Notes under the pieces: model-generated
What the model was told of the DNA's origin: nothing
Database searches by the model: none
What the model saw: only the letters and a program-made list of their open reading frames with translations
Part shown: in pieces, positions 2,699 to 12,040 of the stretch
Layout: the number at the start of each line of letters is the position of its first letter
How positions within the stretch are numbered: position 1 is the stretch's first letter
IMG/VR virus record: IMGVR_UViG_2751185968_000006
Strand: one strand, 5' to 3'
Length of the DNA: 12,040 nt
Source: a virus
Lineage: Duplodnaviria; Heunggongvirae; Uroviricota; Caudoviricetes
Translations under genes and position numbers: made by a program

Positions 2699-3109
2699 TG
2701 GGATTCACGAGAGTAGTTTAATTGAGCGTGTAACTTCATGATTTAAAATAATGTATATGATTCAACTTTTAAACCGTATAACCAAACGTATAACTAAAAT
2801 GATTTGCTGAAAAAATGCACAATTCAGGGTCGGATTTTCCCGGATGTTTAATTTATAAAAACGAAGCTGGTGGATGATCTGCGTGGTGATTTCCACCATT
2901 CAGAGCAGGGGCGGTCATCATGCCCATGCCATAACAAAAACCCCATATTCGTGGTTTTTCTGTGTTGTGGCTATTCTGCCGTTGCCGTGCTGGTGGATAT
3001 TTCCGTTATGGGGATCACCATATCGGCATCATGCCCACCAGCCAGCGCAATTTTGCGCTTTGCTTTAAGTTCAGCAAGTTACCGCGCCGGATTACGCCAA
3101 TGGCTGTTT

Positions 3110-3287
3110 CCGAAAGAATCAACGGGTTAGGCCTTAATGGGCTGCGTGGTAATTATCAGCATCCAGAATATGACGGGTTATGTTTCCGACCTCCTCAATT
3201 TGAGGTTCCCGAAAATATCAACGGGTTAGGCTGGTTTCCCCGATGTTCGCCGCTGGCGAATTTCGAAAATATCAACCAGTTACCGCC
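3110..3287 (+). repeat. Three direct copies of a ~22-bp motif (consensus near CGAAAATATCAACGGGTTAGGC) in a non-coding stretch at the element boundary
   Basis: Copies at 3110-3133 (CCGAAAGAATCAACGGGTTAGGCC), 3208-3232 (CCCGAAAATATCAACGGGTTAGGCT) and 3262-3287 (TTCGAAAATATCAACCAGTTACCGCC). A palindrome CCTCAATTTGAGG lies at 3193-3205. Confidence 0.5.
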
Positions 3288-3561: not shown

Positions 3562-3595
3562 TGTGCACCTATCGTTCTGATTGTCTGGTGTCGTC

Positions 3596-3780
3596 GGGTC
3601 CTTCCTGGAATTATGGACCCGTTACGGGGCGGCGACCTCGCGCGTTTTCACTATTTATGAAAATTTTTCGGGATCCATGTCCGGTTTCTCTACAAGTTAA
3701 CCATATGAAAAATATAAAAACATGCTTTCCATGAACCGGACATGCGCAAAAAACAGACACTAAAACCGGACATCGAACCA
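3596..3780 (+). other. Lambda-type cos site, copy A (plus orientation): cosQ-like flank, cosN, and cosB-like region with three ACCGGACAT repeats
   Basis: GTTACG at 3621-3626 then GGGCGGCGACCT at 3627-3638 (the 12-nt lambda cohesive-end sequence), then CGCGCGTTTTCACTATTTATGAAAATTTT resembling the lambda left end as recalled. Repeats: CATGTCCGG 3676-3684 (inverted), ACCGGACAT 3735-3743 and 3765-3773. Confidence 0.6.
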
Positions 3781-3841: not shown

Positions 3842-4276
3842 TTACTGTTCTGTATCGGCTGATTGCTCCATGCTGGCACGGCGAACGCTTACGGCATGAC
3901 GCCACCCAGCCAGAAAGCCAGCCATTTTATTTCGTGCCTTGCTCACATCTTCCGGTGAATAGCCGTAAATCTGCAAACCTTCATCAAATCGATGTTCTGT
4001 TTCTTCACTGGAGTACTCGTCACGCTCAGATGAAAGCAGCCTGGCAAACATAATTTTTTCCAGCGCACTGGTTTCTACGTGATATCTGATGGCCTCAAGA
4101 CGGCTTTTACCTGAAGACCAAAGCAATGTATGCCCGATGTGATAACCGCCAGACTTTCCGCGATCCGCATTAAGATACGGCATCCCCTGTTTGGTCCATG
4201 CGCGAATAGTGGTTCTGTTAACCTTGAAATGTTCAGCTATTTCCTGCTGACTTACAAAACAAGCTTTATCAATCAT
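3842..4276 (-). CDS. Terminase small subunit-like protein (lambda Nu1-type N-terminal HTH), 144 aa; candidate packaging-redirecting (Rpp-like) protein
   Basis: N-terminus QQEIAEHFKVNRTTIRAWTKQGMPY resembles lambda Nu1 KKQLADIFGASIRTIQNWQEQGMPV (from memory). It is shorter than Nu1, sits about 90 bp downstream of cos copy B on the same strand, and no large terminase gene is present. Confidence 0.7.
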   Translation of the reverse strand: MIDKACFVSQQEIAEHFKVNRTTIRAWTKQGMPYLNADRGKSGGYHIGHTLLWSSGKSRLEAIRYHVETSALEKIMFARLLSSERDEYSSEETEHRFDEGLQIYGYSPEDVSKARNKMAGFLAGWRHAVSVRRASMEQSADTEQ

Positions 4277-4343
4277 AATGTTACCTTAACTGCATGGTTA
4301 AATATTAATCAAGTGGTGGTGGTGTCACCTTCACGGAAAAACG

Positions 4344-4407
4344 TCATAAATAGCGAAAACCCGCGAGGTCGCCGCCCCGTAACGGGCCATAATTCCAGGA
4401 AGGACCC
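4344..4407 (-). other. Lambda-type cos site, copy B (minus orientation), immediately upstream of the TerS-like gene; inverted relative to copy A
   Basis: Minus-strand reading is GGGTCCTTCCTGGAATTATGGCCCGTTACG-GGGCGGCGACCT-CGCGGGTTTTCGCTATTTATGA; cosN lies at 4366-4377. About 64 bp are near-identical to copy A (3596-3660) in inverted orientation. Confidence 0.65.
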
Positions 4408-4409
4408 GC

Positions 4410-4431
4410 AAAAAAGCCGGATTTCTCCGGC
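4410..4431 (-). terminator. Rho-independent terminator-like hairpin after the 137-aa gene; copy 1 of a thrice-repeated hairpin
   Basis: Plus strand AAAAAA-GCCGGA-TTTC-TCCGGC (stem 4416-4421 / 4426-4431). On the minus strand the hairpin is followed by T6. Confidence 0.45.
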
Positions 4432-4437
4432 CTTGTC

Positions 4438-4851
4438 TCAGATGGTTTTCAGTATGCGATCGATGTCGCCGTCATCGCCTGGGTTTCTGCCATCGTATGC
4501 CATGCCAGCTGATACGGTTTGTGGGCTGTGCATGTCCATAAAGTTTTCAAAGGCTGCGGTAAGCTCTGGTGCAACCTTCGGGCGTTCCTGCTCTATGGTC
4601 ATGTTCAGGATGTTTTTAGCCGTATCAACATCGATACAAGGCACGTTTGCCATTGCACGCAACAGCGGCTGATAGTCTTTATGCTCATGAAGCGCCATAA
4701 TCGCATCAGCGCGCGGCTTGTCCTGCTCTTCCAGTTTGTTGAGTTGATATACGGCCTCGTAGGTTGATAAACCTCTGTCAGCCATTGCCCGCGCTTCGGC
4801 TTTAAATTTACTCGCCAGCGGTAGCGCCATGATGCTTTCATTCGTTGCCAT
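4438..4851 (-). CDS. Hypothetical protein (137 aa) between decoration-like gene and cos; possible head or packaging accessory protein
   Basis: ORF with ATG at 4851 and a GGGGGA Shine-Dalgarno sequence. Position matches a capsid/packaging module; no family recognised. Confidence 0.5.
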   Translation of the reverse strand: MATNESIMALPLASKFKAEARAMADRGLSTYEAVYQLNKLEEQDKPRADAIMALHEHKDYQPLLRAMANVPCIDVDTAKNILNMTIEQERPKVAPELTAAFENFMDMHSPQTVSAGMAYDGRNPGDDGDIDRILKTI

Positions 4852-4863
4852 CGTTCCCCCTGC

Positions 4864-5167
4864 TTATCGGGCCAGCGGCTGAACGGATACGCCAGAACCC
4901 GCAAAGGCGGCGCATTTTTTCGCATCGGTGTCGACGCTCTCAGGCCAGTTAACGGCGGCAATATTGAATATCCCCGTCTTGTAACACTGTGCTGATTTCT
5001 GCTTTGACGTGTCCACGAGGTACGAAGTCAGATAAACAGCCTTGCCAGATTCCTGACCATCCCACGGCTTAAACTCGCCATTGTCCACCAGCATCAGCGG
5101 CAAAATGTACCAGTGTCGTTGATACCTGCTGACTGCCTGCAAATAACTCAATATATGGAGTGTCCAT
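4864..5167 (-). CDS. Head decoration protein, lambda gpD-like; possibly frameshifted
   Basis: The C-terminal frame (supplied ORF 4864-5151) reads PLMLVD...WDGQ...YKTGIF...WPESVD...KKCAAFAGSG, paralleling lambda gpD PLMLD...WDG...YKSGTF...WPEA...KKRTAFAG (from memory). The only ATG with a good RBS (GGGGGA) is at 5167 in another frame, which stops at 5069. Confidence 0.55.
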
Positions 5168-5178
5168 ATAATCCCCCG

Positions 5179-6234
5179 TTAACCAATTTTGACGGTAACA
5201 AATTTGCGAATATCTGCCGGAACCGGCTGCGGTGCGCTGTGTGTCTGCACGTACTCAATCGCCGGATCGCCGTCCTCAATCCAGTTTTTCGGGTAGTACA
5301 TGTTTTGCGTTGCGCCCGTTCTTACCGCTTCCTGATCCATAATCGCACCATAGGCCACCAGCCCTTTATTGTTGGTGTTGCCCAGGACCAGCAAATCAGG
5401 CTCAAGGAAATATTTTTCGGTGCCGTCGCTGTCAGTGTATTTGCCGGAATAGACAATAAGAGCAATATCGCCCAGATAGCCTTTAAAGCTCACCACTTCG
5501 CCCAGGTTTTTACAGGCCATTTCTGCGGCGGATTCTGAACCACGGGAAAGATCGTACAGTTCACGGAATTTTTTAAAGCTGCGTAACGTGCGCCATACCT
5601 CAGCGCCCATAATCATGACGTTGGCGGGGCAACCTGCCTGATCTGCGTATAGTTCGATGTCATAGATTGGATCGTAAATATCTTTATCATGCTCGGACCA
5701 TTTTTTGCCGTCGGACTGCTCTATGATGTTTTTTTCCGGTATCTTCCAGTCGATTTCATAGCGTTCTATGCCTTCGCCCTCAATGATGTTTTTTCCGGTC
5801 GTTACCGCATTCACCGCCAGCCATTCCACGCGTGCCTTAATGGCGTTTATCTGGCGGCGCATGTTGCCAGTAATCAGGCGCATACGGCGATAGGTAGGGT
5901 CGTTAAGCTGTGCCGGATCTTCTCCAGCCATGCGCATGATGGTTTTCGTTGGATCGATTTCGTGCTTTGGCTTCATGTAGCCAGGTTTGATTGTGCTGGT
6001 TTCGTACCCTTTATCGCGCTGAACCTGGCTACCCACCATAGGCGAACAAAACGCCGACATGGTGACTTCTTCAATGTCCAGGGTATCCAGCATGATGTTT
6101 TGCGTGCTGAATGTCGCCACGTTCGGGAAAAACAGCGTGGTAAACAGAGGGCTGAATTTAAAATCCGCAATATCCCCGCGATTCAGGTACATAAAAAGCT
6201 GGTTAGTGTTAAGTGCCGTTGCTTTGCCTGCCAT
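5179..6234 (-). CDS. Major capsid protein, lambda gpE family (351 aa)
   Basis: Collinear similarity to lambda gpE as recalled: FKFSPLFTTLFF vs FKFDPLFLRLFF, PGYMKPKHEIDP vs PGYVKPKHEVNP, DPTYRRMRLITGNMR vs DPAYRRRRIIMQNMR, YKGYLGDIALIVYSG vs YKGMYGDVAIVVYSG, YPKNWIEDGDPA vs YPKNWVTTGDPA. Confidence 0.9.
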   Translation of the reverse strand: MAGKATALNTNQLFMYLNRGDIADFKFSPLFTTLFFPNVATFSTQNIMLDTLDIEEVTMSAFCSPMVGSQVQRDKGYETSTIKPGYMKPKHEIDPTKTIMRMAGEDPAQLNDPTYRRMRLITGNMRRQINAIKARVEWLAVNAVTTGKNIIEGEGIERYEIDWKIPEKNIIEQSDGKKWSEHDKDIYDPIYDIELYADQAGCPANVMIMGAEVWRTLRSFKKFRELYDLSRGSESAAEMACKNLGEVVSFKGYLGDIALIVYSGKYTDSDGTEKYFLEPDLLVLGNTNNKGLVAYGAIMDQEAVRTGATQNMYYPKNWIEDGDPAIEYVQTHSAPQPVPADIRKFVTVKIG

Positions 6235-6440
6235 TATTCACCCCCATAATTTTTATGCATCCCAAGCGCCGCAAGTAAATAAGAGCGTACAAGTGAACCT
6301 ATCGACGGCTCCGGCGTCATCAGCGGATCCAGTCCAGCCGCCACGCCAGCCTCATAGTTTTTTTTGTGGCGCTGCTTGAGCACCTCCACGATTTCGGGGC
6401 TTATGTACACCGAAACACCGCCTTTTTTCTCTTCAGCCAT
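6234..6440 (-). CDS. Hypothetical small protein (about 68 aa), translationally coupled to the major capsid gene
   Basis: Likely start at ATG 6440 (MAEEKKGG...) with AAGAGGAA upstream; the supplied ORF extends to 6473 without an RBS. Its stop overlaps the capsid start as TAATG at 6232-6236. Confidence 0.45.
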   Translation of the reverse strand: MAEEKKGGVSVYISPEIVEVLKQRHKKNYEAGVAAGLDPLMTPEPSIGSLVRSYLLAALGMHKNYGGE

Positions 6441-6493
6441 AGTAAGAAATTCCTCTTCGACTAAAAAAATCATAACTGGATGTTTATCCAGTC

Positions 6494-6524
6494 CTGATTA
6501 TAATCAGAATTGCATTTTATGCAA
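6494..6524 (-). promoter_or_regulatory. Putative sigma70-type promoter for the capsid module, with both hexamers inside palindromes
   Basis: Minus strand: -35 TTGCAT (plus 6519-6524), 16-bp spacer, -10 TATAAT (plus 6497-6502). The -10 lies in the palindrome CTGATTATAATCAG (6494-6507) and the -35 in TTGCATTTTATGCAA (6510-6524). Confidence 0.4.
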
Positions 6525-6604
6525 TAATATTGAGTTATGTTGCAAATTATGAAATGATTATCCCGATCACGAACGCCAGTGCATCCAAAAACCTCATATG
6601 CAAA

Positions 6605-6642
6605 AGCCCGATAAGAACCCTCTGACCTTATCGGGCTTTTTT
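6605..6642 (+). terminator. Terminator-like hairpin with T6 tail on the plus strand
   Basis: Stem AGCCCGATAAG (6605-6615) / CTTATCGGGCT (6627-6637), followed by TTTTTT (6637-6642). No obvious plus-strand gene lies upstream. Confidence 0.4.
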
Positions 6643-6648
6643 GGGCGC

Positions 6649-6670
6649 AAAAAAGCCGGATTGCTCCGGC
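6649..6670 (-). terminator. Rho-independent terminator-like hairpin after the 74-aa gene; copy 2 of the repeated hairpin
   Basis: Plus strand AAAAAA-GCCGGA-TTGC-TCCGGC (stem 6655-6660 / 6665-6670); T6 follows on the minus strand. Confidence 0.45.
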
Positions 6671-6690
6671 TATGTGTGCTGTGTGCTGGA

Positions 6691-6915
6691 TCAGTCTCTG
6701 ATCTCTTTCAGAAATTCTATCAATGCATCTATCTGTTCAGGATTTACCGCCAGCATTTCACCGGATAGAGCACATCTCACAAAACCATGCTGATCCTTTT
6801 CAATCAGTGCGCCCGTCTCCAGGAATGCGCGGTAATCATTGATGCTCATCGTCTCCATGTTGTCAGCATGGTATTTATCACGCTGTTTTAATATCTCATC
6901 AAATTTCATCGGCAT
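6691..6915 (-). CDS. Hypothetical protein (74 aa), stand-alone cassette
   Basis: ATG at 6915 with an AGAGGAAA Shine-Dalgarno sequence. Bracketed by terminator hairpins at 7012-7033 (upstream) and 6649-6670 (downstream). Confidence 0.5.
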   Translation of the reverse strand: MPMKFDEILKQRDKYHADNMETMSINDYRAFLETGALIEKDQHGFVRCALSGEMLAVNPEQIDALIEFLKEIRD

Positions 6916-7011
6916 TGTTTTTTTCCTCTGTTGTGTCTGTTTGTTTCAGATAGTAACTATGCCTGACCGTGACGAAAACCCGGTAATGCGCCATACCGTT
7001 TCAACTGGTGC

Positions 7012-7033
7012 AAAAAAGCCGGATTTCTCCGGC
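7012..7033 (-). terminator. Rho-independent terminator-like hairpin after the PerC-like gene; copy 3 of the repeated hairpin
   Basis: Plus strand AAAAAA-GCCGGA-TTTC-TCCGGC (stem 7018-7023 / 7028-7033); T6 follows on the minus strand. Confidence 0.45.
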
Positions 7034-7040
7034 TGTTTGA

Positions 7041-7313
7041 TTAGCTGTCCTGGTAATTGCGCCATATTTCATCACCAGCACCATCTATACCCATTTCGGC
7101 ATAAGTGCGATCGACTGCCTTTTTCAGGTCTCCGAAATTATCCGGCGGCTCCGGTGCCCTCTGTGCCTTCCTTGAACATTCCAGCCGTCGCATCGTGATG
7201 TGATGCCGTTCCTTGTCTGTCTCCACCAGCTGCATGACTTCACCCCATCGCGCCGCCGCCCTCCGGTAAAAGCCTTTCGCCTCCAGTTCCTCCGCTATGC
7301 GGTCATGTACCAT
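7041..7313 (-). CDS. PerC-family-like transcriptional regulator (about 90 aa)
   Basis: Likely start at ATG 7313 with a strong GAGGGGGTG RBS. The protein MVHDRIAEELEAKGFYRRAAARWGEVMQLVETDKERHHITMRRLEC fits the PerC/Pch pattern (LE..G.WRRAA.RW...TD.ER) as recalled. Confidence 0.45.
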   Translation of the reverse strand: MVHDRIAEELEAKGFYRRAAARWGEVMQLVETDKERHHITMRRLECSRKAQRAPEPPDNFGDLKKAVDRTYAEMGIDGAGDEIWRNYQDS

Positions 7314-8182: not shown

Positions 8183-8530
8183 TTATAGCGGCGCTACATC
8201 ATCCCCATCGATACTAATAACCCCATCTTTTTCCAGCTTGTACAGCCAGCGCCGGAAGTTTTTCATTTCATACCCCAGCTTTTTCATGTCATCACGTAAC
8301 AGCGGGATCGTGCACTTGTCGCCGTTCTGTGTGCGTGAACGGATGCACCCCCATAGCGCGGTATGGTTTTCCGTCTTGTTCCCTGCCTCCTCGATGCGCT
8401 CCAGTTCAACAGGAGGGCGCGGATCATCCACCACCACCAGCGACGTGATTAATTCACCGTCAGCGTCGGTAAAAAGCTCCACCACGCGTAAGTCATATGC
8501 GGCTTCTTTGAGTTCCTCCGCGTCCTTCAT
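8183..8530 (-). CDS. Replication protein, C-terminal fragment (second piece of a frameshifted primase/helicase-type gene)
   Basis: This frame stays open upstream of the annotated ATG to about 8638 and there encodes DESARGSSAFRASLDAEY, the expected continuation after the HHSGKD motif of RecA-like replication ATPases. Confidence 0.6.
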   Translation of the reverse strand: MKDAEELKEAAYDLRVVELFTDADGELITSLVVVDDPRPPVELERIEEAGNKTENHTALWGCIRSRTQNGDKCTIPLLRDDMKKLGYEMKNFRRWLYKLEKDGVISIDGDDVAPL

Positions 8531-9582
8531 TTTGGTGCATGAGATAACCAGCGCTTTGCTTCCTGCGTCCTCCCTGCGTATCCGGTATTCAGCATCCAGC
8601 GAAGCACGAAATGCACTGGAACCGCGCGCGCTTTCGTCTCATCCTTGCCGGAATGGTGAACCACCAGCACCGTGGCCCCTGTGCGTCGTTTCAGTTCGTC
8701 ACAACCACGGATAAACGCCCCCATATCACGGGAATCATTTTCATCATTCCCACCAAAGCAACGCGCCAGCGTATCCAGAATAATCATGCGTACAGGTTTA
8801 CCCGTTTCCCGCTCCACCTGACGGGCAGCGATAACCATTTCATCAACATCAAGCGGGGCAGCCGGAAAGATGGGGCGGTTTACCAGATACAGATTTTTCA
8901 CCTGCTCATCGTGCACAACCTCCCAGGCTTTTACACGACGCGGAACGCCGATACCGCCTTCACCAACCACATAGAGAACCGCACCATGTGCAACCCTGCG
9001 GCCTCCCCACTGGCGACCAGTGGCAACATGGCACGCCCACGATCCGGCAAGGAATGATTTATAGGACCCGCTAGCCCCGTATATGCTGCATAGCGATACC
9101 GCCGGAATAATCCCCTTAACCACGTAATCCAGTTGCGTGTCGTATCCGGTAGATCCAACGCTCATCGGTAGCGTGGTTTTTCGCTGGTGGTTTTTTTCTT
9201 CCACCGGCTCTTTCCCGCGCACCCGTTCCAGGTATTCGCGCCAGTTCTCCCGCATATGGCTGTGCATCCCTTCGGGGTAATAATTCGCATCAGTTACACC
9301 CGCCGCCGCCAGCTTGTGCGCAATGGCATTAATATTTGATGGCCTGATGTGGCCTGCCTTGTACAGCCGGACACAATAGCGCCCCTCGTCGATGATTCTC
9401 AGGTCTGCCAGTTCATCCAGTTGATCATCAGCCAGCACAACGGGAGGCACATTATCGCCAGCCAGTCGCCCGTCCTGTTCCTGCCACTGTTTTGCATGTG
9501 CCCAGGCATCACTACCCGCAAAAATAATGACTTCGGTCATCTTGTCGTAAGGCTGTTTTTTTAAGTTCGGTGCGCTTTTCAT
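8527..9582 (-). CDS. Primase/helicase-type replication protein (RepA-like P-loop ATPase), N-terminal fragment ending prematurely after a frameshift
   Basis: Walker A GASGSYKS, Walker B MIILDTLARCF, then VLVVHHSGKDE typical of RepA-like helicases. The frame then reads TKARAVPVHF... to a stop at 8527, just downstream of a (CG)4 tract at 8623-8631. Confidence 0.75.
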   Translation of the reverse strand: MKSAPNLKKQPYDKMTEVIIFAGSDAWAHAKQWQEQDGRLAGDNVPPVVLADDQLDELADLRIIDEGRYCVRLYKAGHIRPSNINAIAHKLAAAGVTDANYYPEGMHSHMRENWREYLERVRGKEPVEEKNHQRKTTLPMSVGSTGYDTQLDYVVKGIIPAVSLCSIYGASGSYKSFLAGSWACHVATGRQWGGRRVAHGAVLYVVGEGGIGVPRRVKAWEVVHDEQVKNLYLVNRPIFPAAPLDVDEMVIAARQVERETGKPVRMIILDTLARCFGGNDENDSRDMGAFIRGCDELKRRTGATVLVVHHSGKDETKARAVPVHFVLRWMLNTGYAGRTQEAKRWLSHAPK

Positions 9583-11764: not shown

Positions 11765-12040
11765 GGTAATGACTCCAACTTACTGATAGTGTTTTATGTT
11801 CAGATAATGCCCGATGACCTTGTCATGCAGCTCCACCGATTTTGAGAACGACAGTGACTTCCGTCCCAGCCTTGCCAGATGTTGTCTCAGATTCAGATTA
11901 TGTCGCTCAATGCGCTGAGTGTAACGCTTGCTGATAACGTGCAGCTTTCCCTTCAGGCGTGATTCATACAGCGGCCAGCCATCCGTCATCCATACCACGA
12001 CCTCAAAGGCCGACAGCAGGCTCAGAAGACGCTCCAGTGT
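11765..12040 (-). mobile_element. IS1-family insertion sequence, partial; right terminal repeat at 11765, continues beyond the right window edge
   Basis: GGTAATGACTCCAACTTACTGATAGTGTTTTATGTTCAGATAATGCCCGATGAC from 11765 matches the IS1 right terminal repeat as recalled. The insB frame follows on the minus strand. Confidence 0.9.
11780..12040 (-). CDS. insB: IS1 InsB transposase, C-terminal part (gene runs off the window edge)
   Basis: Minus-strand translation [86 protein letters not shown] matches the InsB C-terminus as recalled; it is in frame to the window edge. Confidence 0.85.

Follow-up and report, generated by a model that had tools for sequence, protein, structure and literature searches.

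The window analysed here, the whole 12,040-nt stretch of IMG/VR virus record IMGVR_UViG_2751185968_000006, is, judged by its genes, a phage-inducible chromosomal island (PICI) of Escherichia coli of the EcCICFT073 type. It carries three copies of one 24-nt sequence, referred to here as hairpins HP1, HP2 and HP3, and their anatomy indicates that these are probably Rho-independent (intrinsic) terminators closing three consecutive leftward transcription units.

Three copies of one terminator-type hairpin

The shared core, GCAAAAAAGCCGGATT(T/G)CTCCGGC (full identity GCAAAAAAGCCGGATTKCTCCGGC), is found at 4408-4431, 6647-6670 and 7010-7033, so that successive copies are 2239 nt and 363 nt apart. 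It contains a 16-nt hairpin, GCCGGATTKCTCCGGC (or GCCGGATT(T/G)CTCCGGC), which on the plus strand occupies 4416-4431, 6655-6670 and 7018-7033. The three copies and the genes that they follow are:

4408-4432, minus strand: HP1, G-GCCGGA-GAAA-UCCGGC-U6-GC, with a GAAA loop; 1 nt before the cosQ-like GGGTCCT
4438-4851, minus strand: gene for a 137-amino-acid (137-aa) protein, phrog_1999; weak similarity to the C-terminal part of the head-maturation protease (phrog_53, 494-567)
6647-6671, minus strand: HP2, with a GCAA loop; the last sequence common to lambda-type and HK97-type islands
6691-6915, minus strand: 74-aa gene, phrog_1957 (an unnamed PHROG)
7010-7034, minus strand: HP3, with a GAAA loop; predicted to close the early (replication/SSB/PerC) operon
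7041-7313, minus strand: PerC-family gene (PF06069, E=1e-42), last gene of the early operon

A sequence-only reading of this DNA had reported the motif three times, with A6 in front of every copy. Both observations were reproduced, against an expectation of 0.01 occurrences and with none of 200 shuffles giving three, and the identity proved to be longer, reaching 24 nt through the addition of GC before the A-run. The same reading had oriented the copies as minus-strand terminators directly after the 137-aa, 74-aa and PerC genes, and this too was confirmed, as the core begins 6, 20 and 7 nt, respectively, past the stop codons of these open reading frames (ORFs). All genes in the hairpin-bearing part of the window lie on the minus strand. 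Read as minus-strand RNA, the copies have the form (A/G)GCCGGA-G(A/C)AA-UCCGGC(U)-U6-GC, that is, a 7-bp stem with five G-C pairs and a GNRA tetraloop, followed in all three cases by U6. The bare stem-loop is predicted to fold with -12.0 kcal/mol in the minus sense versus -10.5 to -11.1 kcal/mol in the plus sense, and the z-scores for folding of the 46-nt contexts are -2.6, -4.1 and -4.8. A consensus terminator scan called copies 2 and 3 on the minus strand.

HP1-HP3 have no sequence relationship with the window's further terminator-like hairpins, two of which stand next to HP2 and HP3:

6602-6640, strand not assigned: hairpin B, with a 14-bp stem AAAAGCCCGATAAG-N11-CTTATCGGGCTTTT; in tandem with HP2 and unrelated to it
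6981-6998, minus strand: small terminator-like hairpin, CGGTATGGCGCATTACCG then GGTTTTCG, directly after HP3; consensus match only

An Rfam search of the window returned nothing relevant. Two related islands (L001 and L002) have copies of the hairpin at the identical three sites, and an HK97-type capsid-forming PICI (cf-PICI), L003, has it at two. In RefSeq, a small ORF spans copy 3 in these relatives (L001 10014-10142, L002 7954-8082, L003 7954-8069) under the name 'hypothetical protein' or 'trigger factor, frameshifted'; it is most likely an annotation artefact.

Conservation and distribution of the hairpin

Variation was assessed in 120 distinct sequence contexts of the hairpin. The 12 stem positions show just three singleton changes. 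Two of these are C to T replacements, which preserve a G.U pair when the RNA is read in the minus sense and would leave C.A in the antisense. Position 2 of the loop, the free position of a GNRA tetraloop, is A in 73 contexts, C in 32, T in 8 and G in 1, yielding GAAA, GCAA, GUAA and GGAA (GNAA); a GAAG loop was seen in 4 of the 120. The T-run is 4-9 nt long, with 6-8 nt in 116 contexts. Stem and loop of HP1 are invariant in 75 loci, and it is the 5-6-nt spacer, the T-run (6-9) and the next base that vary there. This pattern, short of being covariation proof, supports selection on a hairpin that would be read as coding-strand (minus) RNA.

A 37-nt query around copy 3 matched 2756 places in 1169 of 5426 complete E. 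coli genomes (22%), the median carrier having 2 of them, and had no match in the other 4257 (78%). All 43 IMG/VR contigs with the 24-mer encode the proteins of the window and are PICIs. In each of seven annotated E. coli records with the hairpin that were inspected, it lies in an island of the EcCICFT073-type family (PICI or cf-PICI); one of these (H108) is filed as a plasmid and is a chromosomal segment with an EcCICFT073-type island. The hairpin was not found in the E. coli phages searched. It is specific to the PICI/cf-PICI satellite family and accessory, and, in support of the sequence-only reading, it is no common genomic or core repeat, being confined to 22% of the complete genomes and, wherever inspected, to PICI-type islands. 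Identity with repetitive extragenic palindromic (REP) elements was ruled out by copy number and by the distribution across the 5426 genomes.

The hairpin at module junctions

The flanks of 112 hairpin copies were sorted into classes. Upstream there are six (the ends of PerC allele 1, PerC allele 2, SSB, the 137-aa gene and, in two variants, the 74-aa gene) and downstream about five (the 74-aa leader; hairpin B with the lambda-type capsid promoter; an HK97-type module; cos, its cosQ right against the hairpin; and a second cos-like sequence). These form 11 flank combinations around one core. In a further combination, the end of PerC allele 1 and the hairpin are followed by the late promoter without the 74-aa gene. 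PerC alleles 1 and 2 share about 75% protein identity, and the hairpin adjoining them is 100% identical. All four pairings of a PerC allele 1 or SSB end with downstream class D1 or a class other than D1 exist, which shows that the two flanks of the hairpin have been reassorted relative to each other. Identity between classes ends 0-3 nt to the left and 5-9 nt to the right of the core, and the loop variant always goes with the downstream flank. The hairpin is the constant element at the points where the modules of family members differ.

Compared with the HK97-type cf-PICI L003, the window is collinear from PerC through HP3 and the 74-aa gene to HP2 and becomes unrelated just past the T-run. 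In a third island type, L169, SSB and the hairpin are followed by a cos-like sequence, beyond which lies a gene for a fusion of a ClpP-like protease with a major capsid protein. This island (NZ_CP024289.1 1785583-1797605) shares the early module and the hairpin, has the fusion gene in place of the lambda-type or HK97-type packaging genes, and is a third packaging-module type in the family. Downstream of the SSB hairpin in L126, L154, L168, L169, L127, L129 and L139 we found TTTTTT(A/G)CGGGTCCTCCTGG...ACGGGGCGG(G/A)(A/G)GGCGCGG, yet another cos-like sequence, whose presumptive cosN differs. On this sequence comparison, a hairpin placed directly before cosQ is itself a recurrent arrangement.

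Between two hairpin copies, some 130 related loci contain either the 74-aa gene or the capsid operon and nothing else. The hairpin is therefore no general carrier of varied cargo, and the suggestion that it might accompany different cargo genes in related islands did not hold.

Predicted transcription units and alternative explanations

The proposed mechanism is that of intrinsic termination, which is established knowledge: the nascent RNA would fold into the 7-bp G+C stem with its GNRA loop, the U6-9 stretch would form a weak RNA:DNA hybrid, and the polymerase would release the transcript. HP3 would close the early replication-SSB-PerC operon. HP2 would close the single 74-aa gene and, together with hairpin B, insulate the promoter of the capsid operon, which is presumably regulated and contained in the 36%-GC region past HP2 and hairpin B. 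HP1 would close the capsid operon 1 nt before cosQ-cosN-cosB and rpp, so that there would be no transcription across cos into rpp. The parts of this arrangement are:

6672-7034, minus strand: 74-aa cassette of 363 nt, running from HP3 and a 96-nt leader through the 74-aa gene and a 20-nt spacer to HP2
6468-6560, minus strand: putative capsid promoter/operator region, 36% GC, with three palindromes
4438-6473, minus strand: capsid operon with genes for a 79-aa protein, a lambda E-like major capsid protein, a lambda D-like decoration protein (frameshifted) and the 137-aa protein
4331-4408, minus strand: lambda-type cos, with cosQ-like GGGTCCT at 4401-4407, the cosN 12-mer GGGCGGCGACCT at 4366-4377 and the start of cosB
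3842-4276, minus strand: homologue of rpp (redirecting phage packaging), with a winged helix-turn-helix (wHTH); PDB 6hlk RppC, E=5e-31; first gene after HP1 and cos

Several points count against this reading. The 7-bp stem is short, and efficiency may for this reason be partial. HP1 is absent from the list of the consensus terminator scan; in the predicted fold, its stem can gain three pairs into the U-tract, with about 3 free U left, and the likely cause of the omission is that this extension leaves too few T for the rule. The third of the stem changes mentioned above is an uncompensated mismatch in HP3 of L140 and L165 (identical in sequence), from which it follows that this copy is not indispensable. 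The near-invariance of the stem leaves it without double compensatory changes, that is, without true covariation. The promoter scan detected no sigma-70-like promoter upstream of the 74-aa gene (6916-7009), where inspection by eye finds just a weak TTTTCG-17-TACTAT; with no detected promoter, expression of this gene may require HP3 to be leaky. Finally, the word 'terminator' is absent from the PICI literature searched (including PMC6092414, PMC6739421 and 10.1101/2022.09.08.507074). It is from the anatomy of HP1-HP3 that we infer termination and its efficiency; public Term-seq and dRNA-seq exist for O157:H7 Sakai (PMC7547250, with GEO accession GSE143631).

Some of these points would suit leaky attenuators, or stabilisers of RNA 3' ends, within one long leftward transcript, where HP1-HP3 would set the amounts or stability of its segments. 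The short stem, the competition of HP1 with its own U-tract, the lack of a detectable promoter before the 74-aa gene and the tolerated mismatch variant of HP3 all favour such a role, as does the backing of HP2 and HP3 by a second hairpin each, as if one were insufficient. We nevertheless consider it unlikely, given that strong terminators are canonically built as a GC stem closed by a GNRA loop with U6-9 right behind it, that a separate promoter-like region with putative operators lies between HP2 and the capsid genes, and that in the scan rpp has promoter-like hexamers of its own after cos. A somewhat better, still tentative, case can be made for the hairpin as a recombination linker, besides or instead of a terminator, whose 22-26 bp of identity would serve as a short-homology junction for module exchange, as has been proposed for the promoter-early stem-loops (PeSLs) of T4-type phages. 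Classical PICIs, cf-PICIs and the ClpP/capsid-fusion type might then trade packaging modules, and gain or lose the 74-aa cassette, at this sequence. Such a role would explain why the same sequence, and not merely any terminator, stands at every junction. It agrees with the 11 flank combinations on one core and the reassortment of flanks across it, with the end of cross-class identity at the hairpin edges, with the complete identity of the hairpin beside the diverged PerC alleles, and with the position of the cassette between two direct-repeat copies in two different backgrounds. However, packaging modules could be exchanged by crossovers anywhere in the long conserved early module on one side and in a conserved 93-aa gene on the other, no hairpin copy stands at their distal boundary, and the 6-20-nt gap from stop codon to terminator is a neutral insertion spot, so that endpoints at the hairpin edge are expected anyway. 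Moreover, downstream classes D4 and D1 differ by an apparent simple deletion beside the hairpin, the constant association of the loop variant with the downstream flank gives no sign of a crossover inside the hairpin, and 24 bp is at the lower limit for RecA-dependent exchange. Because crossovers in conserved flanks, combined with selection to keep the terminator, would give the same picture, a linker role is not required; it is compatible with termination and does not exclude it.

The 16-bp palindrome could instead be a DNA site for a dimeric protein, either a cos-side accessory site for packaging or an operator, and no RNA element at all. GCCGGA-N4-TCCGGC is indeed a perfect palindrome, and it directly precedes the cosQ-like GGGTCCT in two kinds of islands (HP1, and the post-SSB copy in L126, L154, L168 and L169). 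Yet HP2 and HP3 are not beside cos, no hairpin accompanies the second, inverted cos at 3595-3673, and lambdoid phages with a homologous cos lack it as well; furthermore, the variation is that of an RNA, with a GNRA loop and G.U-tolerant changes, and the T-run is always on the 3' side of the coding strand, all of which makes a DNA site very improbable. The idea that the hairpin is part of cos was rejected on the first two of these counts. As a design, the hairpin is a generic, convergently arising terminator: at least 120 unrelated genomes from a range of phyla hold one copy each of the exact 22-mer, against about 0.14 expected by our own calculation. The recurrence of this design is the one argument for regarding the three copies as independent convergent terminators or chance matches, an explanation that we give almost no credence, as three identical 24-mers within 2.6 kb never arose in shuffles, the remaining terminator-like hairpins of the window do not resemble them, every inspected E. 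coli copy lies in the EcCICFT073-type island family, and the survey of complete E. coli genomes does not show it as a sequence in common use among core terminators. Three identical copies within 2.6 kb must share descent; they are identical because they descended from one sequence that spread within the satellite family, and not by convergence. Intrinsic termination at HP1-HP3 thus remains the reading that we prefer.

The carrier island

The window is assigned to the EcCICFT073 type because Rpp, homologues of capsid and decoration proteins and a lambda-like cos, the hallmarks of EcCICFT073 (PMC6092414, PMC6739421), are all predicted in it. In leftward order, its early part comprises Icd-like genes, DUF4222, the RepA helicase, SSB and PerC, followed by the 74-aa gene; next come the 79-aa gene, the lambda E-type capsid gene, the lambda D-type decoration gene, the 137-aa gene and the gene for the wHTH protein. 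In E. coli chromosomes, matching islands occupy the interval from yejO to tRNA-Pro/yejM or that from phoQ to roxA. At its two ends (1-243 and 11765-12040) the window consists of pieces of IS1 that point the same way. With yejO 5'-truncated and the island broken off ahead of the integrase, the segment is an IS1-bounded piece. The position of the integrase is beyond the IS1 at the right end, outside the window; the relatives carry int together with an AlpA-family regulator.

The RepA-family helicase, a single 465-aa gene in relatives, is split in the window (8183-9582) into overlapping ORFs at 8183-8530 and 8527-9582; the split comes from a frameshift mutation or else from an error in sequencing. 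Three direct repeats of CGAAA(A/G)(T/A)ATCAAC(G/C)(G/A)GTTA (3106-3282, with spacings of 99 and 54 nt) lie close to the island's left end and could be recombinase arm sites or iterons.

The 74-aa cassette

In related islands, the cassette is present or absent as a unit, through an indel of 354-364 nt. In the HK97 background, L003 has the order PerC, hairpin, 74-aa gene, hairpin, module, and L167 has PerC, hairpin, module; in the lambda-type background, the cassette is found in the window and is missing from L128, L191 and L242. Its GC content is 43%, versus 55% for PerC, 59% for SSB and 49-51% for the capsid genes. The sequence-only reading had taken the hairpin-delimited units for modular accessory (moron) cassettes. 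This holds for the 74-aa unit, which appears moron-like in three of four sequence characters of morons (extra DNA, composition and, by anatomy, a terminator of its own; PMC3594210), and the hairpin copies do mark module boundaries; it does not hold for the early and capsid operons, which are core. For independent transcription of the 74-aa unit, which it also proposed, the promoter scan offers no start site.

Searches of Pfam, PHROGs, NCBIfam and PADLOC with the 74-aa protein gave nothing past the unnamed PHROG, and tblastn against phages gave no match. Close homologues occur in E. coli only, and a remote family has about 17 representatives at about 40% identity. A structure model from the single sequence was poor, with a predicted local distance difference test score (pLDDT) of 53; the alignment-based model reached a pLDDT of 83, and a Foldseek search with it against PDB and BFVD returned no match with E<=0.001.

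The capsid operon, its upstream region and cos

On the minus strand of 6468-6560, a perfect TATAAT can be read 16 nt after TTGCAT, and the entry of the promoter scan in this region is TTCATA-18-TATTAT. The three palindromes lie side by side at 6468-6531, where they share bases with promoter hexamers ahead of the capsid operon, and relatives have conserved them. They are AACTGGAT-N4-ATCCAGT, CTGATTATAATCAG (with TATAAT on both strands) and ATTGCAT-N3-ATGCAAT, and are likely operators for some regulator, possibly PerC or AlpA. Hairpin B looks bidirectional, since its plus strand has a T6 run and its minus strand U4; in relatives its stem is kept and its loop differs. Its 3' arm and T-run can pair with the A-run and 5' arm of HP2 (6630-6643 with 6648-6661).

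Within the operon, the 137-aa protein may be a Nu3-like scaffold; the RefSeq record L168 labels it a head-tail connector. The decoration gene (4864-5168) is frameshifted, its ATG frame ending after about 33 codons, and falls 32 nt short of its L001 counterpart, which encodes 111 aa. From HP2 to HP1 the window spans 2239 nt, versus about 2272 nt in relatives.

Following the U-run of HP1, the minus strand reads GC-GGGTCCT...ACG-GGGCGGCGACCT-CGCGGGTTTTCGCTATTTATGA, which we take to be the cosQ, cosN and cosB-proximal sequence of lambda. The segment 4326-4413 is 80-87% identical to lambdoid phages, with the similarity starting at the T-run and excluding the hairpin. The lambda-like cos sequences at 3595-3673 and 4331-4408, each about 80 nt long and inverted relative to one another with 88-96% complementarity, flank rpp, and the hairpin precedes the right-hand one only. 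EcCICFT073 is reported to have two cos sites (PMC6092414), of which these may be the equivalents.

Comparison with known systems

The kind of element and the satellite family are both known; this particular hairpin had not been described. It shares with intrinsic terminators of E. coli and its phages the G+C stem, the stable tetraloop and the U-run, placed on the coding strand immediately past a stop codon, as well as the tandem second hairpin, here after two of the copies. It differs from them in that one 24-nt sequence, a predicted terminator, is reused three times in 2.6 kb and throughout a family. REP elements and bacterial interspersed mosaic elements are likewise extragenic and located at 3' ends of genes, and the outer stem of REP resembles GCCGGA...TCCGGC. 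However, they are imperfect, about 35 nt long and present in hundreds of copies per E. coli core genome, whereas the hairpin is perfect, 16 nt long, absent from 78% of the genomes and confined to PICIs.

Like phage morons as described by Juhala and Hendrix (reviewed in PMC3594210), the 74-aa unit is an extra between adjacent genes, lower in GC and equipped with a predicted terminator of its own. In contrast to morons, it is without a detected promoter and resides in a satellite, and the other two hairpin-delimited units are core operons. The PeSLs of T4-type phages (PMC2839356, PMC4122927) are also terminator-type stem-loops at indel boundaries, where unrelated sequences are joined. Those elements are composites of a terminator and a promoter, present in many copies in hyperplastic regions, whereas here only the terminator (24 nt) is repeated, in 2-3 copies per element and with one known cassette. 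A check for a composite of terminator and promoter found only 22-26 nt (hairpin, T-run and GC) common to the copies, and the downstream flanks are unrelated.

With EcCICFT073 and EcCIEDL933 (PMC6092414, PMC6739421, 10.1101/2022.09.08.507074), the island has in common Rpp, the capsid and decoration proteins, cos, PerC, SSB and the replication module, and the hairpin is present in its HK97-type cf-PICI relatives too; terminators and the structure of transcription units are not described in those papers. A terminator reused at the ends of operons is ordinary biology in itself. If HP1-HP3 do terminate, they provide the first transcription-unit map of EcCICFT073-type satellites, with an early operon, a one-gene cassette, a capsid operon and cos-rpp, in which transcription is stopped just before the packaging site, and the map would be useful for placing cargo when PICIs are engineered as delivery vehicles. 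The pattern at the junctions is a testable candidate for swaps of packaging modules between satellite types, and, should the hairpin also act as a linker, it would be a satellite counterpart to the boundary sequences postulated for lambdoid phages and to the PeSL motifs that T4-type phages carry.

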